A stretch of 64,000 bases of DNA from a plasmid, in the sequence record NZ_CP024444.1; one strand, written 5' to 3'. Position numbers and translations under genes: made by a program. The notes below the pieces were generated by a model. It was not told the origin of the DNA. It did not search any database and saw nothing but the letters and a program-made list of their open reading frames with translations. Below, piece after piece: positions 4,285-25,524 of the stretch. Position 1 is the stretch's first letter, and the number at the start of each line of letters is the position of its first letter.

Positions 4285-4496
4285 AATCTTTCCTAAGAAG
4301 AAGATTTAAGATTAATGTTTTAAATGTCTACTATTACTACCCTGCAATACTGATTGGGTGATAAAAGCAAAGTTATTCTACAATAAACTTTCATACTGTG
4401 TCCTTGTTTTCAATTCCTAAAACCAAAGACTTTTGTTTGAAACCTCGCATCAATAAATTTTATTTCATTATAAACATATCAAATTATGAATTAAAT

Positions 4497-5478
4497 ACCC
4501 CACTCTCAACACTTTTAAGTGGGATTGAAACAAAGAAGGCATGAACTTAAACTTTAATCAATGACCAAAAAGATTAGAGGATAAGCCATGCCCATAGATG
4601 AATTTATCATTAAAATCTATCTAATGGTAGATGACTACTACAAAAAGATTGTAACAAACCGCCTAAGACAAGGCGGATATGCACCTAAACTGACCGACAG
4701 TGAAATCATCACCATGGAGTTAGTGGGTGAATTTTTACAGATGGACACCGATTCACAAATCCATCAGTATTTTAAACAGCATTGGCAAACATGGTTTCCT
4801 AATCTAGGCTCATACCCCAACTTTGCTAAGCAGTGCGTTAATTTGCTACAAGTAAAAACTTTGATACAACAGCATATCGTTAAACAGTATGGACAAGACA
4901 ACATTCATTTTATTGATGGCTTTCCAATCCCTGTGTGTCAATATGCCAGAGCCTATCGGCATAAAACCTTCAAGTACGAAGGTAGTTATAGTTACTGCGC
5001 CTCAAAGCAACAAAAATATTTCGGCTTTGAAGGGCATTTACTTATCAATCTATCGGGCATGATAACGAATTTTACCTTTGCCTCTGCCAGAATAGATGAA
5101 AGACTCGTTGCACCTGATATGCTTGATGATATTAAAGGTTTATTGGGGGCAGATATGGGTTATATTAGCCCTGATTTATCCGAGTATTGCTTCAAGCGAT
5201 GTGTTGATTTGCAAACACCGCTTAGAAAAAATATGTCCGATAAAAGACCAATCAGTGTCCTTAATCGTCTTAAAAATGCTCGTCGCAATATTGAGACAGT
5301 AATTGGTCAGTTGTCCGAGCGGTTTAATATGCAAAAGGTTAGAGCGAGAGATTTATGGCATTTATCCCACAGATTTATGCGTAAAATCTTGGCTCATAAC
5401 TTCTGCTTTGTAATTAATAAACAGTTAGGTAATCCGCCACTTCAGTTTGAACTGCTTATTTCAAGTTGAGAGTGGGGT
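4497..5478 (+). mobile_element. IS982-family insertion sequence, copy 1
   Basis: Terminal inverted repeats ACCCCACTCTCAAC at 4497-4510 and GTTGAGAGTGGGGT at 5465-5478 flank a 293-aa DDE transposase. The IS is about 982 bp. Confidence 0.75.
4588..5469 (+). CDS. IS982-family DDE transposase
   Basis: 293 aa, starting MPIDEFIIKIYLMVDDYY. It is about 95% identical to the copy at 21820-22701. Confidence 0.75.
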   Translation: MPIDEFIIKIYLMVDDYYKKIVTNRLRQGGYAPKLTDSEIITMELVGEFLQMDTDSQIHQYFKQHWQTWFPNLGSYPNFAKQCVNLLQVKTLIQQHIVKQYGQDNIHFIDGFPIPVCQYARAYRHKTFKYEGSYSYCASKQQKYFGFEGHLLINLSGMITNFTFASARIDERLVAPDMLDDIKGLLGADMGYISPDLSEYCFKRCVDLQTPLRKNMSDKRPISVLNRLKNARRNIETVIGQLSERFNMQKVRARDLWHLSHRFMRKILAHNFCFVINKQLGNPPLQFELLISS

Positions 5479-5479
5479 A

Positions 5480-8137
5480 TTAATAGGAACTTTTCAACTC
5501 ATTTGCTAAAAATGATGCAGTGCGACTATCAAGGTTCTGTGCTACCTGTTTTGGTGTTCCTGCCACAACAATATTCCCACCAGCATTTCCAGCACCTGGT
5601 CCCACATCAATCACCCAATCTGCTTGTGCAACGGCACGCATATCATGCTCAATCATAACCACGGTATTACCCGCATCGACTAATCGCTGCAATTGAACTA
5701 ACAATCGATCTACATCTGATGGATGCAAACCTGTAGTTGGCTCATCAAGTATATACAGTGTATTTCCACGCTGATTGCGTTGCAGCTCGGTCGCCAATTT
5801 AATACGTTGCGCTTCTCCACCAGATAGTTCAGTCGCTGGTTGCCCTAAACGTAAATAACCAAGACCAATTTCCTTTAATAATTGTAGTGAACGAGCAATC
5901 GAGACCTCTCCATCAAAAAAATCACGTGCTTCATTGACGGTCATTTCTAATACTTCAGCAATATTACGTCCATTCCAGCGAATTTTCAGAGTGTCATCAT
6001 TATATCGAGCACCATGACATGTCGGACAAGGGGCATATACACTTGGCATAAACAATAATTCTACACTGACAAAGCCTTCACCTTCACAAGTTTCACATCG
6101 CCCTTTAGCCACATTAAATGAAAAACGTCCAGCATCATAATGAGCTTGGAGAGCTTCAGGAGTCCCAGCAAATAACTTTCTAACATGATCAAATAAACCC
6201 GTATAAGTTGCCAGATTAGAACGTGGAGTACGGCCAATTGGTTTTTGATCAACCTGTACCAGACGCTTTATAGCCTCCACATCACCAGCTAGAGAACCTC
6301 GTGTAACCTCGGTAACCAACATTCCTTCATTTAAAGGATTATCTTCATTATTGTTTTCAGTTTCAGATTCATTGCCTAAATATGAAAGTACTAACTCAGG
6401 TAAAGCTTGAGAAACGAGACTAGATTTACCTGAACCTGAAATACCTGTAACTGCTGTAAGTACACCAAGAGGTATACGAGCATCAATATTATGCAGGTTA
6501 TGTCGGTAAATATTGTTAAGTTCAAGCCAACCAGAGGGTGTACGTCCATAACTTTGAGTAACTGGGATTTTATTAAATAAATAACTTGCAGTACGTGAAG
6601 CTGAAATCTCACTTAAACCCTGAGGTACCCCACTATATAAAATATTACCACCTTGCTCTCCTGCATCTGGTCCAACATCCACTAACCATTGAGCACGACG
6701 CATGAGCTCTAAATCATGCTCTACAACAAATACGGAGTTCCCAGCATCTCTTAATTTATCGAGGGAATCATATAATGACTGACTATCTGAAGGATGTAAT
6801 CCAGCAGACGGCTCATCCAGTACGTAAACTACACCAAATAGCATAGAACTTAATTGTGTTGCTAAACGCAAACGTTGTAACTCTCCAGCTGAAAGAGTCG
6901 GTGTGGCTCTATCTAATGTTAGATAACCAAGGCCTAACTGGCGTAATTGATTTAAACGCCCTACCACACCACTTGCTAAACGCTGGGCAGCAATTTTCTT
7001 TTCATCTGAAAGTGCTGAAGTACGTCTTACATCTGGAGATACAGAATGCACTGCTCTACCTGTTGTTGCTCGTTCAGATCTATCAAGTTGGGTTACTTTA
7101 TTATTAGTCTTTTCGCCAGCATCATGAGCGTCGAAATCGCCAAGAACAATGGGTTCAAGCAGGCAAGTTAATTTATCCAAAGAAAGTTGCATAAACTCAC
7201 CAATATCTACTCCTGCAAAGGTAATAGATAAGGCTTCTGGCTTAAGTCGTTTACCATGGCAGGAAGGGCATATTTTTCCTTCCATAAAACGTGAAACACG
7301 TTTTTTCATCAACGTACTTTGGGTATTAGCAAAAGTATGAAGGACATAGCGACGAGCACCAGTGAAAGTGCCCATATAGCTGGGTTCTAGTTTACGTTTA
7401 AGTGCAGATTGAGTCTCAGCGGGGCTTAAACCAGCATAGACAGGAACTGTTGGGGTTTCTTCAGTAAATAAAATCCAATCTCGATCCGATTGCGGTAAAT
7501 CTTTCCATGGTCGATCAACATCATACCCTAGGGTTACTAGGATATCGCGTAAGTTTTGCCCGTGCCAAGCAGGTGGCCATGATGCGATAGCTCTCTCACG
7601 AATACTGAGTGTCGGGTCAGGAACCATTGTCGATTCTGTAACTTCATAAATGTGACCTAAACCATGACAGGTAGGACAAGCACCTTGAGGAGTGTTCGGC
7701 GAAAAGTCCTCGGCATATAACATTGGCTGATCGGCAGGATATGCACCAGCACGCGAATAAATCATTCGAACGAGACTTGATAAAGTTGTTACACTTCCAA
7801 CAGAAGAACGGGTATTACTTGCACCACGTTGTTGTTGCAATGCGACTGCTGGTGGTAGACCATCAATAGCATCAACATCTGGTACTCCTGCCTGATCAAT
7901 TAAGCGTCTTGCATAAGGTGCAACAGATTCGAAATATCTTCTTTGTGCTTCAGCAAAAATAGTCCCAAAAGCAAGTGATGATTTTCCCGAACCCGATACA
8001 CCTGAGAAAACAACAAGTGCATTTCTTGGGATAGAAACATCTACATCCTTAAGGTTATGTTCACGCGCACCTCGAACTTCAATACAATTATTAGATAAAG
8101 TAATGTTATTGGGTTCACCAAAAGAATGTGTTTTCAT
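5480..8137 (-). CDS. uvrA: UvrA-like ABC ATPase (class II UvrA paralog, shorter than canonical UvrA)
   Basis: 885 aa with an N-terminus (EVRGAREHNLKDVDVSIPRNALVVFSGVSGSGKSSLAF) nearly colinear with UvrA. It has two ABC modules with Walker A motifs and CxxC zinc-finger pairs. The stop codon is supplied at the IS982 right inverted repeat. Confidence 0.8.
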   Translation of the reverse strand: MKTHSFGEPNNITLSNNCIEVRGAREHNLKDVDVSIPRNALVVFSGVSGSGKSSLAFGTIFAEAQRRYFESVAPYARRLIDQAGVPDVDAIDGLPPAVALQQQRGASNTRSSVGSVTTLSSLVRMIYSRAGAYPADQPMLYAEDFSPNTPQGACPTCHGLGHIYEVTESTMVPDPTLSIRERAIASWPPAWHGQNLRDILVTLGYDVDRPWKDLPQSDRDWILFTEETPTVPVYAGLSPAETQSALKRKLEPSYMGTFTGARRYVLHTFANTQSTLMKKRVSRFMEGKICPSCHGKRLKPEALSITFAGVDIGEFMQLSLDKLTCLLEPIVLGDFDAHDAGEKTNNKVTQLDRSERATTGRAVHSVSPDVRRTSALSDEKKIAAQRLASGVVGRLNQLRQLGLGYLTLDRATPTLSAGELQRLRLATQLSSMLFGVVYVLDEPSAGLHPSDSQSLYDSLDKLRDAGNSVFVVEHDLELMRRAQWLVDVGPDAGEQGGNILYSGVPQGLSEISASRTASYLFNKIPVTQSYGRTPSGWLELNNIYRHNLHNIDARIPLGVLTAVTGISGSGKSSLVSQALPELVLSYLGNESETENNNEDNPLNEGMLVTEVTRGSLAGDVEAIKRLVQVDQKPIGRTPRSNLATYTGLFDHVRKLFAGTPEALQAHYDAGRFSFNVAKGRCETCEGEGFVSVELLFMPSVYAPCPTCHGARYNDDTLKIRWNGRNIAEVLEMTVNEARDFFDGEVSIARSLQLLKEIGLGYLRLGQPATELSGGEAQRIKLATELQRNQRGNTLYILDEPTTGLHPSDVDRLLVQLQRLVDAGNTVVMIEHDMRAVAQADWVIDVGPGAGNAGGNIVVAGTPKQVAQNLDSRTASFLANELKSSY

Positions 8138-8219
8138 GTTTCTACCCTCTATCGCTTAAAAAGTCGTAAGCTAATAATTATTAAAATATTTTCTATTAAT
8201 TCCTAAAATTAAAGTTAGC

Positions 8220-9512
8220 TTAATTCTTAGGAATAGATTTACTAATATCTTCTTTTCTTACATTTGTGATAAGTCTTGAACCACGATAACCCACACTATG
8301 ATTCCACAACCAACTTAAGGCAACGTTTAAACGACTTTGCACACCAATCAAAAAGTAAATATGTATAAGTTTCCAAAACCACCAAGCGAGTACTCCTTGT
8401 AGTTGAAATTTACCCATATCAACAACTGCGCGACTACGTCCAATTGTTGCTAGATTACCTTGATGATGATATTTAAATGGCTCTTTTATATCTTTGCCTT
8501 TTAATCGATTATCAATGGTTTTCGCAACATATTTTCCTTGTTGTTTGGCGGCTGGTGCTATACCTGGTACTAACTTACCATCTTCCATAGTAACTGCCGC
8601 GGTATCACCAATGACGAAAATTTCAGGATGCCCTGTCACAGTTAGATTTGAATCAACCAACACACGCCCTGCACGATCAGATTCAACATTTAACCAACGA
8701 GCTGCTGGAGATGCTTGTACGCCAGCAGCCCAAATAATTGTTTTTGCAGGTAGCTGTTTTCCATCATAAACAACACCATCTTCTGAACAACTTGTCACTG
8801 GTGTTCCAAGTACAACCTCAACACCAAGTTGTTCAAGTGCCTGACGGGTATAGCTAGACAACTTTTCAGGGAAAACTGATAATAAACGTGGACCGGCTTC
8901 AATCAATACCACTCGAGATTCACGAGGATCTATCAAACGAAAATCTCGAGATAACGTATCTTTTGCCAGTTCTGCAATAGTTCCTGATAGCTCAACTCCC
9001 GTCGGACCACCTCCAATGATCACAAATGTTTGTAAAGCCTTTCTTAAGATTGGATCTTTGGTACGTTCAGCTTCTTCAAAGGCAGCCAGAATTCGTTCTC
9101 GAATATTTGTTGCATCCCCCAAGGTTTTTAAACCTGGTGCAAATCGCTCCCATTCATCATGACCAAAATAAGCATGAGTAGCACCTGTCGCAATAACTAA
9201 AGTGTCATAATGCAACTTTTCGCCATCATCAAGAACAACTAGTCGGCTACCCACTTCAATGCCCTGCACCTCTCCCATTAAGGTACGGACTTCAGGACGG
9301 TTTCGAAAAATATATCGAATAGGCCAAGCGATTTCAGATGTTGATAAAGATGAGCCTGCGACTTGATACAATAATGGTTGAAATAGATGGTGATTTCTTC
9401 TGTCGATAATAGTTATATCGACATTGACACCAGCGAGACTATTTGCAGCCTCTATCCCTCCAAAACCAGCTCCAATAATAACAACACGATGACGTCCTGT
9501 AGACTTTACCAT
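8220..9512 (-). CDS. ndh: type II NADH:quinone oxidoreductase (NDH-2)
   Basis: 430 aa with an N-terminal FAD Rossmann motif (VVIIGAGFGGIEAA), a second dinucleotide motif (VIIGGGPTGVE) and a C-terminal membrane anchor. Confidence 0.85.
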   Translation of the reverse strand: MVKSTGRHRVVIIGAGFGGIEAANSLAGVNVDITIIDRRNHHLFQPLLYQVAGSSLSTSEIAWPIRYIFRNRPEVRTLMGEVQGIEVGSRLVVLDDGEKLHYDTLVIATGATHAYFGHDEWERFAPGLKTLGDATNIRERILAAFEEAERTKDPILRKALQTFVIIGGGPTGVELSGTIAELAKDTLSRDFRLIDPRESRVVLIEAGPRLLSVFPEKLSSYTRQALEQLGVEVVLGTPVTSCSEDGVVYDGKQLPAKTIIWAAGVQASPAARWLNVESDRAGRVLVDSNLTVTGHPEIFVIGDTAAVTMEDGKLVPGIAPAAKQQGKYVAKTIDNRLKGKDIKEPFKYHHQGNLATIGRSRAVVDMGKFQLQGVLAWWFWKLIHIYFLIGVQSRLNVALSWLWNHSVGYRGSRLITNVRKEDISKSIPKN

Positions 9513-9531
9513 GAGTTTATCTCCCTATTTC

Positions 9532-10362
9532 CTAGCACTTAAGAGCTAAAGCATGATGCACAATATGTGCACGAATAAAGCTCGCAATGAAGTAATAACT
9601 ATGGTCGTAACCTTCTCTTAGGTTTAAAACTAAAGGGTGATCCATTTCAGTACATACTTTTCGTAGTCTTTCTGGTTGAAGTTGGCTATCAAGAAATTCA
9701 TCCCCTAAGCCTTGATCAACTAATAATGGAATTTTATGAATTGAATTCTTAACTAATTCAACAGTATCGTATTGTTTCCATGATTCCTGATCAGCTCCTA
9801 AATAAGCATTGAAAGCTTTTTGTCCCCAAGGAACTATGGATGGATTAACAATAGGCGAAAAAGCTGATACGCTCAGATATAATTCGGGATTACGTAAGGC
9901 AATCGTTAATGCCCCATGTCCTCCCATTGAATGACCACTAATACCGCGTTTTTGTGACGCAGGGAAATGAGCCTCAATTAGCGCTGGAAGTTCATGCACA
10001 ATATAATCATACATTTGAAAATGTGCAGCCCAAGGATCTTGAGTGGCATTCAGATAAAATCCAGCACCTTGACCGAGATCATATGCAGGATCGTCAGCTA
10101 CATTTTCTCCACGAGGGCTAGTATCTGGTGCAACAATAATAATTCCATGTTCAGCCGCATATTGTTGCGCTGCAGACTTCGTAATAAAATTTTGTTCTGT
10201 GCAGGTAAGACCACTGAGCCAGTACAGTACTGGTAATTTATCTTGATGCACCTGAGGAGGCAGATAAATAGCAAATTTCATCATGCATCCGAGTACTTCA
10301 GATTTATGTTGATAAACGTCTTGCCAACCACCAAACATTGCATGATGTTCAACACGATCCAT
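9532..10362 (-). CDS. fghA: S-formylglutathione hydrolase (esterase D family)
   Basis: 276 aa with the GHSMGGHGAL serine-hydrolase motif and esterase D/FrmB architecture. It lies next to frmA/gfa. Confidence 0.85.
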   Translation of the reverse strand: MDRVEHHAMFGGWQDVYQHKSEVLGCMMKFAIYLPPQVHQDKLPVLYWLSGLTCTEQNFITKSAAQQYAAEHGIIIVAPDTSPRGENVADDPAYDLGQGAGFYLNATQDPWAAHFQMYDYIVHELPALIEAHFPASQKRGISGHSMGGHGALTIALRNPELYLSVSAFSPIVNPSIVPWGQKAFNAYLGADQESWKQYDTVELVKNSIHKIPLLVDQGLGDEFLDSQLQPERLRKVCTEMDHPLVLNLREGYDHSYYFIASFIRAHIVHHALALKC

Positions 10363-10435
10363 ATCGTTTTCCTTATTACAAAAAAGTTGTGATCTCCCTT
10401 TATTTTTAGAGAGGTCTTGTTTGTCGTTAAAATGA

Positions 10436-11770
10436 TTATTTTTCTGGTATTACATCACTATGCTTTTGTCTAATCTTTCGCATTGTCCACCAAATAGAAA
10501 ACATCACTAACGGTACTAATATCGCAATTGTGAATTCAGGCGCTGCTATATCATGAACTGAAGGTATACCTTTCACTAAATATGCAAGTAAACTAACAAC
10601 ATAATAAGAAATCGCAGCAACGGATAAACCCTCTACCGTTTGTTGAAGGTGTAATTGTTGTCTAGCACGATTATTCATTGATGTGAGCAAATCTCGATTT
10701 TGACGCTCTAACTCAACATCGATCCATGAACGCAAAAGAGAAATAGCACGTGTTAATTTTTCAGAAAGAGTAGCTTGGCGTTCTTTAACAGATTGACATG
10801 TCCTCATCGCTGGAGCGATACGACGCTCAAGAAAGTCGTGCCATGTGCAATATCCAGATATAGACTTTTCTGAAAGTCTATTCAAACGTTCTTCAACGAG
10901 TTCATAATAAGCACGACTGGCGCCAAATCGGTAAAGATTCGCTGCCACATTGGCTTCTAGTTCAGTTGCAAGCGTCGTAAGTTCAAATAGCAGTACATCA
11001 TTATCACGTCTTAATTCTGTTCCTTTATTCATTTCATCAGTGATCGCGGCAAGCCGTAGCTCCATCTGACGTAGTTCAAAGGTCATTGTTCGAATTAATG
11101 GCAAAGCAAGTAATGCCAATGTTCGATATGTTTCAATCTCTAATAAACTTTGAGCAAGTGCGCCTGCACGAGCCTCTGTCAAACCACGATCAAGAATAAG
11201 AATCCGGGTCAGACCGTCATTATCTTGTCTGAAATCAGTCAAAATAGCTGCTGTTTCATTTTCTACTAGTGAATAGCACAAACTGACTGTATCAAAACGA
11301 TTTACCAATTTTTCAGATTCAGTAGCCCATGGCAATACTTGCAAGCAGATACCTGAGATAATTTCACCTGGTGGAACAAAGCCATTTTTAAATGGATCTT
11401 CACCTTTAGGCAATCCCGTTGGTACATCTAGTTCTGCACACCAAAGATATGTGGAAAATTCTGTGTGTTTTTCACAATGCAAATTTCCTTCATCCCAAGT
11501 CAAACCATGAAGTGGTGATTCTTCTTTTTGAGTTTTTTTCAAGCCAAAGCGATCTGATAGTTCATCCAGCGCAATTTGGTCCTTGCTTGGATCTCCCTCT
11601 GTCAAGAAAGCTAACTGCAATAAGTTTCGTGGAGCTTGTATTAATAAAGGTGGACGGGCATGTACCTCTCCCACAGCCCTCACTCGATCTGCATGTGCTG
11701 GCATACCATATACAAATGCAGTCGAGGAAGTTTGTGGGGTCGTTTTGATAGCGGGTTCTTCTTTCATCAC
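10436..11770 (-). CDS. hypothetical membrane-anchored protein embedded in the formaldehyde-detoxification cluster
   Basis: 444 aa with two C-terminal transmembrane helices. It sits between gfa and fghA on the same strand, and I recognise no family. Confidence 0.5.
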   Translation of the reverse strand: MMKEEPAIKTTPQTSSTAFVYGMPAHADRVRAVGEVHARPPLLIQAPRNLLQLAFLTEGDPSKDQIALDELSDRFGLKKTQKEESPLHGLTWDEGNLHCEKHTEFSTYLWCAELDVPTGLPKGEDPFKNGFVPPGEIISGICLQVLPWATESEKLVNRFDTVSLCYSLVENETAAILTDFRQDNDGLTRILILDRGLTEARAGALAQSLLEIETYRTLALLALPLIRTMTFELRQMELRLAAITDEMNKGTELRRDNDVLLFELTTLATELEANVAANLYRFGASRAYYELVEERLNRLSEKSISGYCTWHDFLERRIAPAMRTCQSVKERQATLSEKLTRAISLLRSWIDVELERQNRDLLTSMNNRARQQLHLQQTVEGLSVAAISYYVVSLLAYLVKGIPSVHDIAAPEFTIAILVPLVMFSIWWTMRKIRQKHSDVIPEK

Positions 11771-11801
11771 GACCTCAGTTTTTCAAGTTTAATAAAGAGA
11801 A

Positions 11802-12380
11802 TTAAGCTTCTTTATACGTTCCTTTCTGCTTAGCTGAATGTGTAGCTAAAGCATCCATTAAGCCCGGTGACAAACAATCATAAGGTTCAAGTTTAAGTTC
11901 ACGTAAACGATTGCGGATAGCATCCATATTTGATGGAGGAGTTCCACTTTCAATCACAGACGAAACAAAAGCTGCAAAACCAGGAGCAGACCATCCTTCT
12001 TGTGGAGAAAGCTCCGTATGAACAAAGTCTAAACCGTAGAATGCATGATCTTTATTTTCGATACGACCAAAAAGGTGCGCTCCACATTCACGACATGCGT
12101 GACGTTGAATTGCAGCATTCTCATCAACAATATGAAGCTTTTGTGGATTTGCTACAACGCTTACTTTGTCACGTGGTACAACTGCAATTACAGCGAACGT
12201 AGCACCTTCTGGTTTCCAGCATTTAGTACATCCACAAGCATGGTTATGCAATGTTTGAGCACCAACCTCAACTTGAACTTTATCCGTTGAGCATAGACAT
12301 TCTAAGATTCCACCGTCGAAGTTTTCTTGGCTTGGACGGATCCCATGATCAAGAGAAGGGTGTATATGAATTTCGCTCAT
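11802..12380 (-). CDS. gfa: glutathione-dependent formaldehyde-activating enzyme (S-hydroxymethylglutathione synthase)
   Basis: The Cys-rich Gfa fold (CLCS...CGCTKC...CRECG) is present. I moved the start to MSEIHIHP at 12380, which has an RBS. The ORF track extends it 15 codons further upstream. Confidence 0.8.
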
Positions 12381-12455
12381 TTTACTTTCCTTAAGATGAA
12401 TTGATCGACATGGTGTGAAATTCACACCATGGATTTTTAATATGAGATTAGTTAA

Positions 12456-13577
<1,122 letters not shown>

Positions 13578-13623
13578 TTAGACCAAATGTAGTTTTTGGC
13601 ACCGAACATCAAGTCGGTGCTGA

Positions 13624-13899: not shown

Positions 13900-14109
13900 A
13901 TATTCAACCTTCTCTCATTTAGATTTAGTCATCATACTATACTCTCTTATCGTTAAACTCATAATACTATACCCCCCCATGGTATAAAAGGGGTAAATTA
14001 AAAATAATTAATATTTTTTGAAGAAAATTATCTTTTAGTTATACTATTGCTTTGCATAATTAATTTAATATTATTAAAAATCAGTAATTTAGTAAAAAAA
14101 TATTAAAAA

Positions 14110-15359
14110 GAAACCTTTGCACGAATAAACACACAAAAGTTCATTAAATTGGTATAATACAATAAAATCAATCACCTAGCAAAAAACACGACTATGGCAT
14201 GGAAACAAACAGGGCAACTCTCCCTAGCAGACAGTCTCATTAACGCTCACAAAGCCATCGAAGAATTAGATGAACTACACAACCTAATTGACTGGCAAAC
14301 TATCGAGCAAACCTTACGCCACGTTCATAGCAGTGAGCGTGGGGAATCTGCCTTTCACCCTGTCATCATGTTTAAAGTATTACTCTTACAAAAACTCTAT
14401 AACCTATCGGATCCAGCCATGGAAAAACAACTGGCACGAGACTTACTATTTCGTCGCTTTGTTGGCCTATCATTAACGGATGATGTACCCGACCATAGCA
14501 CCATTTGGCGATACCACAAACACCTAGGTGAGCTTAGACTGATTGAACCATTGTTCAACCAAATCAATGAGCAACTAGCCCAACAAAACATTTTTATCAA
14601 AGCGGGCAGTGTCAGCATCATCGATGCCAGTATCGTTGAAGCTAAAAACAAACGACCTAAGAAAGGCAAACACACCGACAATACCCAAGATAACGAAGCC
14701 GCCTATGTCAGTAAAAAAGACAGTACAGGTAAAGTAAAAACCACCTACGGCTTTAAAATTCATCTCAACTGTGATGAAGACAGCTTTGTCAAAAAGGTTG
14801 AAACTACCCCTGCCAATGTCCATGATTCCCAATGTTTTACCACGCTGTTAACAGATGATGAATCAGCCGTGTATGCTGACAGTGCGTATAAAAGCCAAGC
14901 CCATGATGACTACCTTGCCGAGCATGAACCACCGATAAAAAATCATATTCATGATAGAGCATGGCGCAATACACCCTTAACCGAACAGCAAAAACGCAAT
15001 AATACCCAAAAGAGCCAAACTAGAAACACCGTTGAGCGGGTCTTTGGACATTTTAAACTGCATTATGGGATGAGCAAAGCTCGTCATTTAGGGTTAATGC
15101 AATTTCATACCAGCACTTTGCTTGCAAGCATGGTGCATAATTTAAAAACTGCCCTAAGCTTGAAACGAAAATACGGACTCGCCTAGGGTTATTGTGTCTG
15201 TTGGTTAGTAAGCTCAGCCAATAGACACAAATTTAACAACCATTTGGAGATTTTATCCATGATTTAGCCATTGTTTTGCTTATTTCATTGCCATTCTTTG
15301 TTTTTTTTCGGTTTGGTGGTATGCCTCGAGCAAAGGGGCTGTTTCGTGCAAAGGTCTCA
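14110..15359 (+). mobile_element. IS5-family insertion sequence
   Basis: Inverted repeats GAAACCTTTGCACGAA at 14110-14125 and TTCGTGCAAAGGTCTC at 15344-15359 match 15 of 16 positions. They enclose a 330-aa IS5-type DDE transposase. Confidence 0.7.
14194..15186 (+). CDS. IS5-family DDE transposase
   Basis: 330 aa reading MAWKQTGQLSLADSLINAHK...ESAFHPVIMFKVLLLQKLYNLSD, which is typical of IS5/IS1182-like transposases. Confidence 0.75.
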   Translation: MAWKQTGQLSLADSLINAHKAIEELDELHNLIDWQTIEQTLRHVHSSERGESAFHPVIMFKVLLLQKLYNLSDPAMEKQLARDLLFRRFVGLSLTDDVPDHSTIWRYHKHLGELRLIEPLFNQINEQLAQQNIFIKAGSVSIIDASIVEAKNKRPKKGKHTDNTQDNEAAYVSKKDSTGKVKTTYGFKIHLNCDEDSFVKKVETTPANVHDSQCFTTLLTDDESAVYADSAYKSQAHDDYLAEHEPPIKNHIHDRAWRNTPLTEQQKRNNTQKSQTRNTVERVFGHFKLHYGMSKARHLGLMQFHTSTLLASMVHNLKTALSLKRKYGLA

Positions 15360-15628
15360 AAAATATATTTTTTAAAAAAAAGAAAATTTATATTAAATAT
15401 TCTTATATTAACACTTCTGTATATCAAATTATCTTTTAGCAAAAACACGCTTAAAAAATAAATAAATTAAATCAATAATTTATGTTAAAGTAAAAAAAAC
15501 CTAGTAATCAAACCGATTGTTAGAAAAGAATATTTCAATTGTTTAAATTAAAATCAATTAAAATAAAACCATGATACAAATTAATCTATCGAATTTACTT
15601 AATCATTTTCTTTTTAACTAGTATGCAT

Positions 15629-17200
15629 TCAACTTGAATAATTCTTCATAAACAAATTAAAATCCATGACTTGCTGCTGCTCTAACACTTCTTGCTCAAG
15701 AAGAGACTTTTGTGCAACTGATTCAAAAAATTGTTTACGCTCATCCGTCAAAACCTGTTTCGAAAAGTTATTCAAATGTTGCTGGCATTGATGTAAAGCG
15801 AAGTCATTAAAACCTATATTATGTTGAAACATATATGTTAAGACCTTAGAGGATGGCGTTAAGAATGAATTCTCAATTTTAGCCTGTTGAGCATATATAG
15901 CTTCTTTATGTTTATTAATATCATTTGCATGATCGAGTAAATTAGCTAGAGGTCTAATATTAGCCAACAACTCTTGAGCCCAATCATACATAGCAATTGA
16001 ACTATCTCCATTTTGGAGTTCTAAATTTGGCTTTCGCCCCTTTTCAGCCACAAGGTGAAAGTTATTATTCGCCTGATTAAGGCTATCTTGACTTAATGAT
16101 GGGCTTTTATATAAAGCACAAAATAATAAAAATGCATCCAAAAAGTAAGCTTGCTCTAAATCAATTCCTAACGAAGAAAAAGGATTAATGTCCAAACAAC
16201 GTATCTCGACATACTGTACCCCACGTGCATTTAATGCATGAAGCACACGCTCACCAGAATATGGAACTCGTTTTGGTCTAATATTTGAATAATATTCATT
16301 TTCTATTTGCAAAATATTAGTATTAAGTTGCACCCATTCGTTATTTTTATGGGTACCAATATTCGTATACAAGGGGTAAGGTGTTTCTAAAGCCTCTTTT
16401 ATACTATGAATGTATGAATTGAGACTATCAAAACAAGGAGAGATAGTAGATTGTGCACTACTTTGATAACCAATCTTACTCATTCGAAGACTAGTCGCAT
16501 AAGGCAAGTAGTAAGTGTCATTATCAAATTTTTTAAATTGATCTAAGTTTTTTTTTAAAAAATTTGAATTAACCGCTGGGGATGCTCCGAATAGATAAAT
16601 CAATAGCCAACTATAACGGTGAAAATTTCGTATCATATCCATATAAATTGATGACCGATCTTTATTTTCGAAAGTAGTTATATTATCTAGTTGGTATAAA
16701 AGCTGAATTAATTGCTCAGGTAATGAAAAATTATAGTGAATACCTGCTATACATTGCATGGCCCTACCATATCGAAGAGCTAATCCTTTTCGATAAACGT
16801 GTTTAAACTTACCAATATTTGAATTGCCATACTCAGCTATAGGAATCCTTTCTTCTTCTGGCAAAAGAGAAGGCATTGATGAACTCCAAAGGTATTCATT
16901 ATTTAGTTTTGTATAAACAAAACGATGAATATCATTAAGTTCTGCAAGGACCTCTGAAGCACTCAAACAAGGTGGCGTAACAAATTCCATTAATGATTCG
17001 GAATAGTCTGTAGTAATAAACTCATTTGTCAAAGCTGATCCTAGTGTTTTTGGATGCGGTGTAAGCACCAAATTCCCATTCTTCGTTACACGCAAACATT
17101 CACGTTCTATCCCTCGCAAACACATAGTCAATAAAGGTAAATTTTCACCTAGAATATTTAGACGATGAGTATAGTGTTCATCAAATATTAATTTATCCAT
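15629..17200 (-). CDS. gshA: glutamate--cysteine ligase (proteobacterial GshA type)
   Basis: 523 aa. The motif ERECLRV...HPKTLGSALTNEFITTDYSESLMEFVTPP matches the GshA N-terminus. It sits in an AT-rich island with atypical codon usage. Confidence 0.85.
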   Translation of the reverse strand: MDKLIFDEHYTHRLNILGENLPLLTMCLRGIERECLRVTKNGNLVLTPHPKTLGSALTNEFITTDYSESLMEFVTPPCLSASEVLAELNDIHRFVYTKLNNEYLWSSSMPSLLPEEERIPIAEYGNSNIGKFKHVYRKGLALRYGRAMQCIAGIHYNFSLPEQLIQLLYQLDNITTFENKDRSSIYMDMIRNFHRYSWLLIYLFGASPAVNSNFLKKNLDQFKKFDNDTYYLPYATSLRMSKIGYQSSAQSTISPCFDSLNSYIHSIKEALETPYPLYTNIGTHKNNEWVQLNTNILQIENEYYSNIRPKRVPYSGERVLHALNARGVQYVEIRCLDINPFSSLGIDLEQAYFLDAFLLFCALYKSPSLSQDSLNQANNNFHLVAEKGRKPNLELQNGDSSIAMYDWAQELLANIRPLANLLDHANDINKHKEAIYAQQAKIENSFLTPSSKVLTYMFQHNIGFNDFALHQCQQHLNNFSKQVLTDERKQFFESVAQKSLLEQEVLEQQQVMDFNLFMKNYSS

Positions 17201-17222
17201 ATATCAAACCTTACATTCAAAG

Positions 17223-17993
17223 TTAATGTGCACCATGAACTACCCTATTAATTAAAGTTACTATAAGAATTCCTATAAAAAGCCAAAGAATTTGGATAAT
17301 GGTATCTTTAGTTGTCCAACGCTGTTGTAATTGAGGAATTAGATCTGATAAAGACACATAAATAAAACTACTACTAGCCAAAATCATAAGGAAAGGTTGC
17401 CATTGCTGTAATCCGGCCAGTAGAAAATATCCACTTAATCCACCTAAAGCTGTCATTGCACCAGCCATAGTAAGCTTTAGTACAGCAGCACTACGATGAT
17501 TTTTCTGCCTAAGAACTACCAAATCACCCATATGATGAGGTACTTCATGTACAAGAACCGAAGCAGCTGCAATCAGCCCAAGATGTATGTCAACAATGAA
17601 AATTGAAGCAATCAAAATACCATCACCAAAACAATGGACTCCATCACCCAATAATAGTGACCAACCATTAGTTGTATGTGGCTCATGTGAATGATTATGC
17701 TCATGTCCGTGATGCCACAATTCAGCTTTATTAAGTAGAAAAAAGAAAACTAAACCAATTAGAAGTGCTAAAAAAAGTTGATGTGTATCTATATTGCTTT
17801 CAAAAGCCTCTGGTAACAAATGTGTAAAACTTGTTGCTAATAACGCACCAGCTGCTAGACCTAAAAAGCCTTGTTGTACATAACTATCTTGATTGTTAAT
17901 AGCTGCCCCAGCTCTCGTTACCAATAAGTCTGCGATCAAAACGCTACCTATTCCTACGACCAGAGTGACTAGGGTAATAATGAAAAGTGACAT
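17223..17993 (-). CDS. zupT: ZIP-family divalent metal transporter (ZupT-like)
   Basis: 256 aa and polytopic, with a His-rich loop (HGHEHNHSHEPH) and the ZIP signature HEVPHHMGD. Confidence 0.7.
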   Translation of the reverse strand: MSLFIITLVTLVVGIGSVLIADLLVTRAGAAINNQDSYVQQGFLGLAAGALLATSFTHLLPEAFESNIDTHQLFLALLIGLVFFFLLNKAELWHHGHEHNHSHEPHTTNGWSLLLGDGVHCFGDGILIASIFIVDIHLGLIAAASVLVHEVPHHMGDLVVLRQKNHRSAAVLKLTMAGAMTALGGLSGYFLLAGLQQWQPFLMILASSSFIYVSLSDLIPQLQQRWTTKDTIIQILWLFIGILIVTLINRVVHGAH

Positions 17994-18308
17994 AGATTTA
18001 ATACATACCTAGTAGACAATCATTTTTAACTAATCGCATATACAAGCCGAAATTCGTTCGATACAACATCAAATTTGTAGATGTTGTATTAAGCAATCTA
18101 ATATACTATACCCACCTATAGTATAAAAGGGATTTTATAAAAAAGTTTAAGCCACTCAACAATTAATAGGAAATTATTTTAAATTCAATTAAATAGATAC
18201 AAAAATCATGACATTCTTAATCAAATCTAGTCTATTGAGAAATTTTTATTTTTTACATTATACAAAAGAGCCTAAACAAAGGCCCTTTCATCACTATTCT
18301 CTGAGCTC

Positions 18309-18416
18309 TTAGTATGCTAATTGAATTAAGAATCTAAAAATTCCTGCAATAACCGCTAATGTAACTACACCAATTACCCAAAGTAAGATAAACCATCCTG
18401 TCTGTGAAAGTTTCAT
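18309..18416 (-). CDS. cydX: cytochrome bd oxidase small subunit CydX-like peptide (35 aa)
   Basis: This ORF is not in the track. ATG at 18414-18416, stop at 18309-18311, peptide MKLSQTGWFILLWVIGVVTLAVIAGIFRFLIQLAY with a single transmembrane helix. It lies 8 nt downstream of cydB on the same strand. Confidence 0.5.
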   Translation of the reverse strand: MKLSQTGWFILLWVIGVVTLAVIAGIFRFLIQLAY

Positions 18417-18424
18417 ACAAACTC

Positions 18425-19429
18425 CTAATGATAACCAGCATCACCAACACGAACTTTACCTTTAAAAATCCAATATGAAAAAATGGTATAAGTCAGAATA
18501 ATAGGAATGAGCAACAGTGCACCAATCAAAGCAAAAAGTTGACTATTCGCTGGGGCTGCAGCCTGCCAGATCGTTACTGAAGGTGGAATAATATAAGGCC
18601 ACAAACTAATTAAAAAACCTGTATAAGCAAGGAAGACTAAGCCTAACGTATAAATAAAAGGACTAAGTTCTTTCTTTTGTTTACATGCCCGTAAAGCCAT
18701 TCCCGTAAAAATAAGTACTAATACAGGAATTGGACTAAAGTACATTAACTGAGGCTGACTAAACCAGCGTTCAGCAATTTGCGGTTGTGAAAGTGGTGTA
18801 TAGATAGTAACTAATCCAAAAATAATAAATACTGAAATGATCAGTTTAGGCATCATTGAAAACATTTTTTCTTGAATTTCAGCATCAGTTTTATAAATTA
18901 ACCATCCACATCCTAAAGTTGCATACAGAACGACTACACCAATACCAGTAAACACAGAGAAAGGTGTCAACCAGTCCAACTGCCCACCAGCATAAACACC
19001 ATTTAAGGTTTTAATACCCTGAATATATGCACCTAGAACTACACCTTGAAGAAAACCTGCAAATACTGAACCACTAATAAAAGCTTTATCCCACAGATGC
19101 TTAGTACGGTTTGCTTTAAATCGGAATTCAAAAGCAACTCCACGAAATATTAATGCGATCACCATCAAAATAATCGGCATATAAAGTGCAGAAAGAACTG
19201 TTGAATAAACTAGCGGAAAGGCAGCAAAAAGCCCCGCCCCACCAAGCACCATCCAAGTTTCATTACCATCCCAGACCGGAGCAACGGTATTCATTAGCAC
19301 ATCTCGCTCATTGGAACCTTTAATGAAAGGAAATAAAATTCCGATACCTAAGTCAAACCCATCTAGAATGACATAAATCAATACACCAATTCCAATAATG
19401 ACAATCCAAATAAGAGATAAATCAATCAT
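18425..19429 (-). CDS. cydB: cytochrome bd ubiquinol oxidase subunit II
   Basis: 334 aa and polytopic, with CydB/CioB-type sequence. It overlaps the cydA remnant by 8 nt. Confidence 0.85.
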   Translation of the reverse strand: MIDLSLIWIVIIGIGVLIYVILDGFDLGIGILFPFIKGSNERDVLMNTVAPVWDGNETWMVLGGAGLFAAFPLVYSTVLSALYMPIILMVIALIFRGVAFEFRFKANRTKHLWDKAFISGSVFAGFLQGVVLGAYIQGIKTLNGVYAGGQLDWLTPFSVFTGIGVVVLYATLGCGWLIYKTDAEIQEKMFSMMPKLIISVFIIFGLVTIYTPLSQPQIAERWFSQPQLMYFSPIPVLVLIFTGMALRACKQKKELSPFIYTLGLVFLAYTGFLISLWPYIIPPSVTIWQAAAPANSQLFALIGALLLIPIILTYTIFSYWIFKGKVRVGDAGYH

Positions 19430-19898
19430 GGCGATTCTCCCGTATTGATTCTAGTTTATCTAAGCTTCCTTCAACCGCACTCATTGGTCGCATCGGTGTT
19501 TGACCAACATCAGCATGTTCGCCTGAATGTACACTTAAGAATTGCGGGCCTTTATGCATTAGCTTTAACATGTAATAAATGCCAATACCGAAAACTACAA
19601 AATAAACCAGAACAAAAATAATTAGAGTTATTCCAACTTGCGATGCGGATACGGGTGACAACGCATCTTTAGTACGAAGTACATTGTAAACAACCCAAGG
19701 TTGACGACCGACCTCTGTTGTAAACCAACCAGCTAGAAGAGCGATAAAACCTGACGGACCCATATATAATGCAAAACGTTGAAACCATTTACTTTCATAT
19801 AAACGGTCAGAACGACGCAGCCATAAGCCTAAGACGGCTAATAGCAGCATTAACATTCCCATACCAACCATGACACGGAAACTCCAAAAGATGATCAA
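19422..19898 (-). pseudogene. cydA: cytochrome bd oxidase subunit I, C-terminal fragment only (truncated by IS3-family insertion)
   Basis: The 158-aa ORF matches only the C-terminal helices of CydA. The N-terminal roughly 350 codons are missing, and an IS3-family left inverted repeat begins 20 bp upstream. Confidence 0.7.
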
Positions 19899-20011
19899 AG
19901 AATTCGGCCGATCTTCTGAACCGTCCTAGTTTTATCAGAGACAGGTTTACTTGAGTCAGGCAGCATAGCCTGACGGAATTAATGAACAATAGTACATATT
20001 TTCTGCATCTA

Positions 20012-21007
20012 CTACGAGCATAGCTCTCCGTCTTGCACTCGGGCGAAGCAGTGCTTCGCTAATCCTCGTTCAGGCGATACATATCCATTGGTAGAATGCA
20101 ATCGTTCATAGTTGTACCAGTGTACCCAATCAAGGGTTGCTAGCGCAACATCATTTACGCCATCCCATTCCTGTTTCAAATAATCAATCACCTCCGCTTT
20201 ATATAGCCCATTCACGCTTTCAGCTAGGGCATTATCTGAGCGAGGAAATAGCGAAGCACTGCTTCGCCCGGGTGCAAGACGTAGGGCTATGCCCGAAGTG
20301 GAGTCACCAGTTGTACCAACCGATGCAGCAAGCCCCGATTGTTTAAGCCGTTCACCGTACTTAATCGATAGATACTGACTACCTTTATCAGAATGATGAA
20401 TTACCCCGCTTGGTCTACCTCTAGCGTCTAAGGCTTGATTTAGGGCATCTAAGACCAGCTGAGTGTCCATATGATTCGATACTTTCCAACCCACAATAAC
20501 TCGCTTAAATACGTCAATCACAAAGGCAGTATAGACCCAACCTGATTTAGTTTTAATGTAGGTAAAATCAGCGACCTGAGGAGCACTGCTCCGCAAGAGT
20601 CTTTTCTTGTTTGGGGCATCGGCAGTAAAGTTGCGTTTAACAAGGTCATTCGGCTTGTCTTGGTCGTCTCTCTGCTTCGTGGTGATTTTGCCTTTGCCTC
20701 GCCATACGCCTTGTATGCCAAGCTGTTTCATTAAGCGTTCAACGGTGCAACGAGCAAGCTTTGGCAAACCCTCTTGTTTGAGCTTGTGCCAAACTTTACG
20801 AATGCCATAGCGACAGCCACTGGCTTGCCAAATCTGTTTGATTTGTGCCATGAGGTGTTTGTCGCTTTGTTTGCGTCGACTTTGCTTTTCTGGGTTGTCT
20901 TGTTCATCTTTGATGCGATAGTAGGTGGATGGGGCAATTGGCAGGATTTTGCAAATCGGCTCGACCCCATATTTTTCTTTTTCATCATCAATGAATTTGA
21001 CCATCAC
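20012..21007 (-). CDS. IS3-family transposase OrfB (DDE integrase core), possibly disrupted
   Basis: 331 aa with a DDE/rve core (HSDKGSQY...). The C-terminal region carries two inverted copies of a 30-bp palindrome-containing element at 20028-20058 and 20249-20280, which lengthen and alter the conserved end. Confidence 0.6.
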   Translation of the reverse strand: MMVKFIDDEKEKYGVEPICKILPIAPSTYYRIKDEQDNPEKQSRRKQSDKHLMAQIKQIWQASGCRYGIRKVWHKLKQEGLPKLARCTVERLMKQLGIQGVWRGKGKITTKQRDDQDKPNDLVKRNFTADAPNKKRLLRSSAPQVADFTYIKTKSGWVYTAFVIDVFKRVIVGWKVSNHMDTQLVLDALNQALDARGRPSGVIHHSDKGSQYLSIKYGERLKQSGLAASVGTTGDSTSGIALRLAPGRSSASLFPRSDNALAESVNGLYKAEVIDYLKQEWDGVNDVALATLDWVHWYNYERLHSTNGYVSPERGLAKHCFARVQDGELCS

Positions 21008-21321
21008 TTGGGTTTGCGGTCGAGCTCCGCCTGGGCTTCAATACCGGCTGCCTTGCGAATGATTTCGTTCGCTTGTTTGAGTTCTCTGATTTCTCGCTCA
21101 AGCTCAGCGATACGAGCCGCTTGGCTTTCAGTGCTTATAGTCACAGGATTTTGCTTAGCTAGGTGCTTTTGATGCCATGAGCGTAGGGTTTCAGGGGTAC
21201 ACCCGAATTTGGGGGCGATGGCTTGGATGGCCGCCCACAGTGAGGGATAATCTTTTTGTGATTCAATCAGTAATTCGACGGCTCTACTCTTAACTTCTGT
21301 TGGGTATTGTTTGCTTTTCAT
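21004..21321 (-). CDS. IS3-family transposase OrfA (HTH)
   Basis: 105 aa with an HTH domain and a leucine-zipper-like C-terminus, overlapping orfB. Confidence 0.7.
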   Translation of the reverse strand: MKSKQYPTEVKSRAVELLIESQKDYPSLWAAIQAIAPKFGCTPETLRSWHQKHLAKQNPVTISTESQAARIAELEREIRELKQANEIIRKAAGIEAQAELDRKPK

Positions 21322-21728
21322 AAGGGTATTGTCTCAGAGTTTTAGGTCTCCGACAATCCCGGGACGGTTCACTTTTGGTCGTCAAGTTTTAAAAGACTTA
21401 GTTTGTAAAAGCTCATTATTAGGAGATTTAGCTCTAAAGAAGAAAGTACATGAACACTTATTTAAGTTTTTAGAAAATACTATTAATTCTCTTTATAATC
21501 CAGATGCATATAAAGATAGTAGAATCGATATGGTATTTAAGGAAAAAGGCTTTACAATACGTAACAATATTTTAAGTTCAGATGTAAGACAAGATTTTAA
21601 TAAAAAAAATTTTTCTGACCCAATTCACAAAATTTTTAAAGATATTGGAATTTTTTAAAGTTATAGATGCAACTCTAACCTTATAACTTTAATTGTATAA
21701 GGTTAGTAGATAGCGCATTATATATTTA

Positions 21729-22710
21729 ACCCCACTCTCAACACTTTTAGAGGGGGTTGAAACAAAAAAGGCATGAACTTAAACTTTAATCAATGACCAA
21801 AAAGATTAGAGGATAAGCCATGCCCATTGATGAATTTATCATTAAAATCTATCTAATGGTAGATGACTACTACAAAAAGATTGTAACAAACCGGCTAAGA
21901 CAAGGCGGATATGCACCAAAGCTAACCGACAGTGAAATTATCACCATGGAGATAGTGGGTGAGTTTTTACAGATGGACACCGATTCACAAATCCATCAGT
22001 ATTTTAAACAGCATTGGCAAACATGGTTTCCACAAATAGGCTCATATCCCAACTTTGCCAAGCAGTGCGTCAATTTGTTACAGGTAAAAACTTTGATACA
22101 ACAGCATATCGTTAAACAGCATGGGCAAGACAACATTCATTTTATTGATGGCTTTCCCATTCCGGTGTGTCAATATGCCAGAGCCTATCGGCATAAAACC
22201 TTCGAATATGAAGGTAGCTATAGTTACTGTGCCTCAAAGCAACAAAAATATTTTGGCTTTGAAGGACATTTACTCATTAATCTATCGGGCATGATAACCA
22301 ATTTTACCTTTGCCTCTGCTAAGATAGATGAAAGGCTTGTTGCACCTGATATGCTTGATAATATCAAAGGCTTGTTAGGTGCAGATATGGGCTATATTAG
22401 CCCTGATTTATCTGAGTATTGCTTTAAGCGATGTGTTGATTTGCAAACACCGCTTAGAAAAAATATGCCCGATAAACGACCAATCAGTGTACTTAATCGT
22501 CTTAAAAATTCTCGTCGCAATATTGAGACGGTGATTGGTCAGTTATCACAGCGGTTTAATATGCAAAAGGTGAGAGCGAGAGATTTATGGCATTTATCCC
22601 ACAGATTTATGCGTAAAATCTTGGCTCATAACGTTTGCTTTGTGATCAATAAACAGTTAGGTAATCCCCCACTTCAGTTTGAGTTGCTTATTTCAAGTTG
22701 AGAGTGGGGT
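21729..22710 (+). mobile_element. IS982-family insertion sequence, copy 2 (direct orientation relative to copy 1)
   Basis: It has the same inverted repeats (ACCCCACTCTCAAC ... GTTGAGAGTGGGGT) and transposase as copy 1. Confidence 0.75.
21820..22701 (+). CDS. IS982-family DDE transposase
   Basis: 293 aa and near-identical to the transposase at 4588-5469. Confidence 0.75.
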   Translation: MPIDEFIIKIYLMVDDYYKKIVTNRLRQGGYAPKLTDSEIITMEIVGEFLQMDTDSQIHQYFKQHWQTWFPQIGSYPNFAKQCVNLLQVKTLIQQHIVKQHGQDNIHFIDGFPIPVCQYARAYRHKTFEYEGSYSYCASKQQKYFGFEGHLLINLSGMITNFTFASAKIDERLVAPDMLDNIKGLLGADMGYISPDLSEYCFKRCVDLQTPLRKNMPDKRPISVLNRLKNSRRNIETVIGQLSQRFNMQKVRARDLWHLSHRFMRKILAHNVCFVINKQLGNPPLQFELLISS

Positions 22711-22906
22711 ATTAAATAGAAAAAATAAAGAAACTCTAAAATATTGGTAAAATTAAAAACCTAAACCTAGTCTTTCATCTTTATTACCAAAACAACCCAC
22801 ATCTAATTATTATCCAAACCCCATATATCACGTCATGCAATCGCTAAAATTTGGTTTGGTCTAATGGCTAATGTGATTAATTTATAGAGGCTTTTTTAAA
22901 TTTATT

Positions 22907-25500: not shown

Positions 25501-25524
25501 TAAAAAACTAACCTTTGCGCAAAT

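Follow-up and report, generated by a model that had tools for sequence, protein, structure and literature searches.

An 18-kb block with the structure of an IS982-bounded composite transposon, carrying Acinetobacter plasmid genes, on a Moraxella osloensis-type megaplasmid

Results and discussion

The block, its ends and its empty target site

The DNA analysed here is a window of 64,000 nt of the plasmid record NZ_CP024444.1, to which all coordinates refer, and the subject is an 18-kb block that is bounded by two insertion sequences (IS) of the IS982 family and lies between genes of a type IV secretion system (T4SS) and an array of 40-bp tandem repeats. The initial annotation had described two IS982 copies in direct orientation whose outer flanks are both ATTAAAT and whose inner flanks differ, and direct reading of the sequence confirms the orientation, the coordinates and the identity of the outer flanks over 7 bp. 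The block is defined by the following elements.

4490-4496: left copy of the target-site duplication, ATTAAAT; a single ATTAAAT stands here in pMOXF1 and nine more assemblies
4497-5478, plus strand: IS982-family copy 1 ("type A"), 982 bp, with an intact transposase gene at 4588-5469 (293 amino acids)
5479-5485: inner flank ATTAATA, next to the stop codon of uvrA and originally the target of copy 1
21722-21728: inner flank ATATTTA, the last 7 bp of a 355-bp gene remnant
21729-22710, plus strand: IS982-family copy 2 ("type B"), 982 bp, with an intact transposase gene at 21820-22701 (293 amino acids)
22711-22717: right copy of the target-site duplication, ATTAAAT; the same junction is present in metagenome contig L050

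Perfect 14-bp terminal inverted repeats, ACCCCACTCTCAAC...GTTGAGAGTGGGGT, are found at all four IS982 ends, and the two copies score 248.9 bits (copy 1) and 247.9 bits (copy 2) against the NCBIfam IS982 model NF033520, which has a cut-off of 130. The length of 982 bp, inverted repeats that start with ACCCC and duplications of 6-8 bp are further features of the family in both copies; IS982 elements are described as about 0.85-1.28 kb long, with inverted repeats of 11-32 bp beginning 5'-AC and direct repeats of 2-10 bp, 7 bp in the case of ISAba825 and ISAba47 (PMC7335449). The looser IS982 consensus AC(N)6T(N)5TT has no exact match in the window copies. The DDE motif of the family is atypical in that no K/R stands six or seven residues behind the E. 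Because the IS starts with A, the duplication can alternatively be read as 8 bp long (ATTAAATA) with an IS of 981 bp. The proposed transposon unit, counted as the two IS copies with all intervening DNA plus the duplication once, extends over 18,221 bp (4497-22717).

In the Moraxella osloensis plasmid pMOXF1 (CP040258.1) the backbone flanks of the block are joined via a single uninterrupted ATTAAAT, and the empty site reconstructed from the window aligns with this plasmid gap-free at 99.05% identity over 633 bp. The same empty site was found in all ten places from independent samples that were returned by a look-up of the exact adjoining DotD-like protein, namely in pMOXF1 and in nine other independent assemblies of the same T4SS backbone. 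A comparison with related plasmids had been proposed as the check for an uninterrupted ATTAAAT, and its outcome establishes that the block is a separate insertion, flanked by a duplication of 7 bp, in the interval from the T4SS genes to the 40-bp array. The index of the public assembly collection lists the exact DotD-like protein in 255 blocks, and all ten sites examined are empty; the backbone is therefore widespread, and occupation of the site is a rare and derived condition.

The insertion site is AT-rich and intergenic and lies 206 bp upstream of the DotD-like T4SS gene, which on the left side of the block is accompanied by genes for a TraI-type lipoprotein and a secretion ATPase. With pMOXF1 both backbone sides share 98% identity. 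A search for promoters around the site gave 3 matches as compared to 2.0 expected, a number that carries no information on T4SS expression. The 40-bp array begins 189 bp to the right of the site (22906-23550; 16 copies of the unit TTACGCTCAAACCCATTTTTATACGTTATTTGCCATTTTC, 96% matches) and is also present in pMOXF1; a role as iteron or centromere or in the vicinity of oriT is possible. Several short-read contigs of relatives stop at about the start of this array.

Could the identity of the outer flanks be fortuitous, such that two independent IS982 insertions happen to bracket resident plasmid DNA? The target preference of the element gives this idea some footing, as IS982 prefers AT-rich targets and ATTAA opens three of the four IS982 flanks, which reflects that preference and no fixed motif. 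However, calculated with the base composition found in 21 other duplications of this IS, the probability is about 7e-4 for a match of two random 7-mers at all seven positions and about 2e-3 for ATTAAAT specifically, that is, in the order of 1e-3. Moreover, the DNA between the IS copies is of Acinetobacter origin with 99.6-100% identity (see below), and the direct joining of the backbone flanks via a single ATTAAAT in ten relatives refutes the notion of resident DNA. A chance match is thus barely conceivable.

The two IS982 copies are distinct variants

The duplications made by other copies of the IS agree with the length seen at the block. Among 22 other intact copies with a duplication, 15 are flanked by 7 bp, six by 6 bp and one by 8 bp, and they are distributed as follows.

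Metagenome contigs with the exact copy 1 transposase, both flanks intact: 3 copies with 7 bp, 1 copy with 8 bp
M. osloensis FDAARGOS_1202 chromosome and relatives, both flanks intact: 12 copies with 7 bp, 6 copies with 6 bp

If the ambiguous terminal base is included, each of the 6-bp duplications comes to 7 bp. AT-richness is common to the duplicated sequences, a fixed motif is not. The initial annotation had also considered that this IS might produce no duplication or one of another length and that ATTAAAT might be a preferred motif at all four junctions; what is found is a typical length of 7 bp, with ATTAAAT at the two outer junctions and other sequences at the inner ones. On the FDAARGOS_1202 chromosome (CP069437.1; L014-L034), 16 identical full-length type-B copies and additional partial ones are scattered, and many of the insertions are followed, directly behind the right-hand duplication, by ATAAAA or ATA, a hint that the target preference is for more than AT-richness.

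The view that the block is flanked by two copies of one element needs to be qualified. The two IS belong to the same family and are in direct orientation, but they are variants with only 93.2% DNA identity (68 differences) and with 282 of 293 identical amino acids in the transposase. Over all of its 982 bp, copy 1 has 100% identity with copies in four independent contexts (L004, L005, L007 and L013), and over 980 bp with a copy in L010, whereas copy 2 is 98.2% identical to the 16 identical copies on the FDAARGOS_1202 chromosome. At 66 of the 68 positions that differ from copy 1, spanning 22-956 of the element, copy 2 is type-B-like; the other two are private, and at none does it carry a base that is specific to type A as against all type-B copies. 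The ends of types A and B are identical over the terminal 21 and 26 bp. Matches to the IS982 copies in the plasmid collection are limited to fragments, all of them in Moraxella, and both variants are Moraxellaceae-specific. The exact copy 2 transposase has no record in the contig index.

Judged from these sequences, neither of the two copies is a chimera of types A and B. This bears on the possibility that a lone IS982 first inserted at ATTAAAT and that the cargo was added later by homologous recombination with an IS982 copy of a second replicon or of a circular molecule. Integration by this route would yield copies in direct orientation, as observed, and the type-B elements found in different genomes are mosaics of each other, which suggests that gene conversion between IS copies does occur and, being a point against the transposition model preferred below, slightly weakens the argument from the absence of chimeras. 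Then again, the integration would be predicted to leave reciprocal A/B chimeras, and copy 1 is purely type A while copy 2 is B-like from 22 to 956, so that the crossover would have to be confined to the terminal 21 or 26 bp. In addition, a divergence of 6.8% would depress recombination, and none of the ten relatives examined has a lone IS982 at the site. The non-chimeric nature of the copies therefore argues against a single IS insertion followed by recombination, and we regard this route as improbable.

All four junctions recur in unrelated assemblies

The repeated IS copies had raised the concern that the junctions might be assembly artefacts. All four of them are, however, reproduced in unrelated assemblies.

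T4SS to IS982 copy 1: assembly L008, corresponding to window 1588-5480, 99.95% identity
IS982 copy 1 to uvrA: assemblies L009, L052 and L054
Gene remnant to IS982 copy 2: assemblies L050 and L051
IS982 copy 2 to ATTAAAT and backbone: assembly L050

Misassembly is unlikely because each junction recurs in this way, and it can be added that the 68 differing positions allow reads to separate the two copies. Moreover, L008 and L050 come from one metagenome (ERZ28580989), and their left and right junctions have type A and type B, respectively, just as in the window. It is true that short-read contigs of relatives break or become chimeric at the IS (L008, L009, L052, L054). In L008 (3861-3891) the IS changes to B-like bases over its final 30 bp, right where the flank specific to the contig starts, and in L009 (69-110) it is B-like in the first 40 bp, again next to the contig-specific flank. 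Both switches probably are short-read assembly chimeras at a multi-copy IS, and because of their position the flanks of L008 and L009 were not used as evidence. The 394-bp inner flank of L008, the 66-bp outer flank of L009 and the last 99 bp of L053 match none of the compared sequences. With each junction of the window independently reproduced, we consider an artefact very improbable.

The cargo is an Acinetobacter plasmid segment

The genes between the IS copies are those that the initial annotation had listed: frmR, frmA, gfa and fghA score above their equivalog cut-offs, and UvrA, gshA, the ZIP transporter, cydB and a piece of cydA are present.

5480-8137, minus strand: UvrA-like ATPase, 885 amino acids, class-II-like (TIGR00630 score 874.9, cut-off 729.8)
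8220-9512, minus strand: NDH-2-type NAD(P)/FAD-dependent oxidoreductase (Pfam Pyr_redox_2 and NDH2_C)
9532-13899, minus strand: glutathione-dependent formaldehyde detoxification cluster (NCBIfam equivalogs and Pfam), detailed in the next five lines
9532-10362, minus strand: fghA (NCBIfam equivalog score 417.2, cut-off 281.7)
10436-11770, minus strand: DUF3422 gene (Pfam match, E = 7e-138)
11802-12425, minus strand: gfa (NCBIfam equivalog score 326.3, cut-off 234.6)
12456-13565, minus strand: frmA (NCBIfam equivalog score 727.9, cut-off 544)
13624-13899, minus strand: frmR (NCBIfam equivalog score 145.1, cut-off 133)
15629-17200, minus strand: gshA (RefSeq annotation of 99.97%-identical DNA)
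17223-17993, minus strand: ZIP-family metal transporter (RefSeq annotation of 99.97%-identical DNA; Pfam Zip)
About 18309-18416, minus strand: DUF2474 small protein, part of a cyd remnant (18309-19916)
18425-19429, minus strand: cydB, intact (Pfam Cyt_bd_oxida_II over the full length)
19422-19916, minus strand: 3' 495 bp of cydA (Cyt_bd_oxida_I model positions 311-418 only)

The view that such a cargo is unusual for a plasmid proved wrong. The region 5479-19916 is collinear with the A. baumannii plasmid pABA-2f10 (NZ_CP026129.1) in three pieces of 99.57%, 99.97% and 100% identity, with 18514-19916 being 100% identical, and the block as a whole is 99.6-100% identical on the A. baumannii plasmids pABA-2f10 and CP101888.1. 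Plasmids of A. pittii (e.g. NZ_CP027659.1) contain the region at about 95% identity. The homology with Acinetobacter plasmids starts at the first base after copy 1. The UvrA-like gene is found on the large majority of 126 matching Acinetobacter plasmid records and, going by these matches, belongs to the genes that Acinetobacter plasmids widely share and whose neighbourhood varies; in line with this, UvrA-like and formaldehyde-dehydrogenase genes are among the genes common to two Acinetobacter GR13 plasmids (PMC9455709). Nearly all of the listed plasmid matches cover only 5496-8145, which is essentially the UvrA-like gene, at about 97.7% identity, and the longer cargo block is common to only six plasmids.

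A 99.6%-identical gene is named excinuclease ABC subunit UvrA in RefSeq. The best TIGR00630 match of the UvrA-like protein starts only at model position 263-267, and the Pfam UvrA DNA-binding domain is present while the UvrB-interaction domain was not found; the protein is without the segment that holds the UvrB-binding domain. As far as can be predicted from the gene content, the cargo may confer tolerance to formaldehyde or oxidative stress.

Later and earlier rearrangements inside the block

Three further elements lie within the block.

14110-15358, plus strand: ISAba23 (IS5 family), intergenic between frmR and gshA, 100% identical to copies on Acinetobacter plasmids
19917-21373, minus strand: IS3-family element of Moraxella type, 1457 bp, with orfA at 21004-21321 and orfB at 20012-21007
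21374-21728, plus strand: 355-bp remnant, 24.5% GC, consisting of the 3' end of an unknown gene (frame to 21658) and a hairpin

The IS5 insertion noticed initially is real. It is ISAba23, a simple insertion with an apparent 5-bp duplication, AAAAA, at 14105-14109 and 15359-15363, and its place in the order of events can be deduced from other sequences. It is missing from pABA-2f10 and also from L052, which has the same cargo allele as the window and already contains the junction between IS982 and uvrA; ISAba23 therefore came after copy 1. The target of copy 1 itself, ATTAATA, is uninterrupted in pABA-2f10 and in contig L053, which is free of the IS and carries the window's own cargo allele (one mismatch in 5691 bp). 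Copy 1 thus arrived at this place by transposition.

As for the presumed IS3 insertion, the element is present, but a simple insertion it is not. It is 94% identical to copies on M. osloensis plasmids, scores 273.5 against the NCBIfam IS3 model (cut-off 160) and contains an ALIL frameshift pseudoknot at 20930-21046. No target duplication was found, the flanks ..GATCTTC and CTTTTGG.. being different, and the element joins the truncated Acinetobacter-type cydA to the unrelated 355-bp gene remnant. These junctions record a rearrangement that brought the remnant and IS982 copy 2 beside the cargo. Even a low-stringency search of the plasmid collection gave no match to the remnant, and its sole protein match (P0001) is found on two metagenome contigs that show the same junction between remnant and IS982.

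The IS3 element abuts the remnant at the same nucleotide in the window (19917-21373), in L050 (4584-5751) and in L051 (1-471), but with opposite orientations in the window and in the two contigs, and the copy in L050 is diverged and left-truncated. A homologous inversion between two IS3 copies was considered for L050 and L051 and rejected, because the IS end that adjoins a fixed flank would retain its orientation in such an event. The opposite orientation may instead reflect transposase-mediated end targeting.

The contigs from metagenome ERZ28580989 open up a further possibility, namely that the outer ends transposed together with some other cargo and that the Acinetobacter segment was swapped in later by homologous recombination, with one crossover in IS982 type A and one in IS3, from a replicon that carried IS982 type A, the genes from uvrA to truncated cydA, and IS3 in this order. 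L050 shares the right outer junction with the window, yet beyond IS3 it continues into copper genes of the megaplasmid, and L008, from the same metagenome, shares the left outer junction and has different DNA after the IS. The exact UvrA protein is on no contig from ERZ28580989. Furthermore, an IS3 element without duplication is as expected after recombination between two IS3 copies, a crossover between type A copies would be traceless given their 100% identity, and the junction between IS982 and uvrA without ISAba23 does exist in other samples (L052). On the other hand, two extra crossovers are required, the inner flank of L008 may not be real since L008 and L009 look like short-read chimeras at the repeated IS, and the inversion of IS3 relative to the remnant in L050 and L051 is not produced by simple homologous recombination. 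It is also possible that the exchange went in reverse and that the cargo in ERZ28580989 is the derived state. All in all we hold a later swap of the cargo to be unlikely, though by no means negligible.

A composite transposon as the preferred interpretation

The block combines a pair of IS of the same family with intact outer ends, a single duplication of typical length and unrelated inner flanks, the related replicons have an empty site, and the transposase reading frame is intact in both copies. These are the hallmarks of a composite (compound) transposon, and we propose, with a probability of roughly 0.7, that the block is such an element and moved as one into a pMOXF1-type Moraxella osloensis megaplasmid.

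The initial annotation had everything between the IS copies transposing as one unit. This we would word conditionally: the present cargo would have been aboard at the moment of transposition, and the IS982-family DDE transposase of either intact copy may have acted on the outermost ends, that is, on the inverted repeats at the left end of copy 1 and at the right end of copy 2. The whole unit would then have been inserted at the AT-rich intergenic site, and repair of a 7-bp staggered cut would have created the duplication of ATTAAAT. As to the preceding events, an Acinetobacter plasmid segment reaching from the uvrA-like gene to cydA would first have entered a replicon with Moraxella-type IS elements, where the ATTAATA immediately behind the stop codon of uvrA received IS982 type A. 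An IS3-associated rearrangement would subsequently have cut cydA and joined it to an unrelated remnant that already adjoined IS982 type B, before the unit moved to the megaplasmid. The insertion of ISAba23 could have taken place at some time after the arrival of IS982 type A.

Several observations weigh against this interpretation. Neither a second location of the unit with another duplication was found nor a donor site, which would be expected to show the junction strings AAAAATTGATTAATA joined to ACCCCACTCTC and GAGAGTGGGGT joined to ATATTTA. Exact-pattern scans of the metagenome collection for the junctions of the remnant with IS982 copy 2 and of IS982 copy 1 with uvrA gave nothing, and the plasmid collection holds no record with IS982 beside the cargo. 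Contigs from ERZ28580989 carry the same two outer junctions with different DNA inward of them: on the right (L050) an inverted truncated IS3 followed by copper-resistance genes that are located elsewhere on pMOXF1, an alternative arrangement of the right-hand side that is seen in two samples (L050 and L051), and on the left (L008, a contig that may be chimeric) 394 bp of unknown DNA. The interior therefore has been remodelled in at least one lineage, just as the lack of a duplication at IS3 implies at least one recombination or rearrangement in shaping the interior seen here. Finally, the transposition mechanism of the IS982 family is unknown (PMC7335449).

Relation to known systems

In having two IS that bracket passenger genes the block resembles Tn9, with its direct repeats of IS1, as well as Tn10, Tn5, Tn125 and TnaphA6, the last two being bounded by ISAba125 and known from Moraxellaceae. 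As in these classical composite transposons the outer ends are paired, with one duplication typical of the IS and an empty site in related replicons. Different from them, the unit in the window uses the IS982 family and two distinct variants of 93% identity rather than identical copies, its cargo consists of genes for stress metabolism and not for antibiotic resistance, and its mobility has been seen once. The IS elements themselves share the length of about 1 kb, 5'-AC termini and a single transposase of about 290 amino acids with ISAba825, ISAba4, ISAba9, ISAlw19/20, ISPsma1 and IS1599, and duplications of 6-9 bp are found with Moraxellaceae IS982 elements such as ISAba825 too. These relatives are known mainly for providing promoters or disrupting genes, and the review of the family does not contain the word "composite" (PMC7335449).

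Direct IS copies also flank the cargo of IS26-type pseudo-compound transposons and translocatable units, and in either case recombination between the copies would delete the cargo with one IS left behind. However, the IS of those units are of the IS6 family and must be identical, and movement is by way of cointegrates or targeted conservative recombination, whereas the window copies are IS982 elements that are 6.8% divergent, non-chimeric and associated with a fresh 7-bp duplication. The block thus does not qualify as an IS26-type pseudo-compound transposon.

With the accessory region of large Acinetobacter plasmids (pABA-2f10, CP101888.1 and NZ_CP027659.1; GR13-type) the block shares the same genes in the same order from the uvrA-like gene to cydA. 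Unlike there, the region in the window is bounded by Moraxella-type IS982 and IS3 elements, resides on a Moraxella megaplasmid and has a truncated cydA, and uvrB and a second frmR-like gene, which follow in pABA-2f10, are both absent from the window.

Other features of the window

To the right of the block, between 24325 and 61877, about 30 copies of a conserved unit of about 150 nt are spaced 0.4-2.8 kb apart in one orientation, each directly upstream of a minus-strand reading frame. In gene sense the consensus of the unit contains a predicted sigma-70-like promoter (TTGATT, 17 nt, TATTAT), which is overlapped by an imperfect inverted repeat, AACGCTAAAACCG...CGGTTAAAGCGTT, with a third half-site upstream, and which is followed by a leader of about 55 nt with a ribosome-binding site. 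The unit has no match in Rfam. The arrangement looks like some 30 single-gene units under one shared predicted promoter/operator. ArdC-like anti-restriction and pentapeptide-repeat proteins are among the products, most of which are without a Pfam match, and the units may constitute a leading-region or anti-defence regulon of the megaplasmid. Two pairs of direct repeats in this region (25217-25504 and 27971-28258, 288 bp, 98% identity; 54284-54583 and 54960-55259, 300 bp, 79% identity) suggest local duplications of gene units. At its far end a 368-amino-acid protein of the TnpB/IS605 OrfB type is encoded (62143-63249, minus strand; Cas12f1-like TNB domain and OrfB_IS605).

Conclusions

Composite transposons are textbook biology and the cargo is a standard block of Acinetobacter plasmids, so no expectation is overturned by this element. 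Its less usual features are the IS family, the two non-identical variants at its ends and the cross-genus origin of the cargo. It may, tentatively and at somewhat less than even odds, be the first compound transposon of the IS982 family to be clearly documented from nature, bounded by two variants of 93% identity and with both empty and occupied sites available. The value of the example lies in a natural transposition event that is documented by its empty site, its occupied site, the pre-insertion site of copy 1 and the order of a later IS, and in the gene flow from Acinetobacter plasmids into a common Moraxella megaplasmid backbone. In practical terms it offers a worked example and a possible marker for aldehyde and oxidative-stress tolerance genes in Moraxella.

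If our interpretation is correct, an IS982-family transposase can pair the ends of two non-identical elements that are 18 kb apart. For a family with an unknown transposition pathway, such a pairing would be a rare clue to the mechanism. The further implication would be that Moraxella IS elements captured an Acinetobacter stress island with functions in formaldehyde detoxification and glutathione synthesis and a UvrA2-like protein, and that this island was moved onto a megaplasmid found in many Moraxella osloensis samples.

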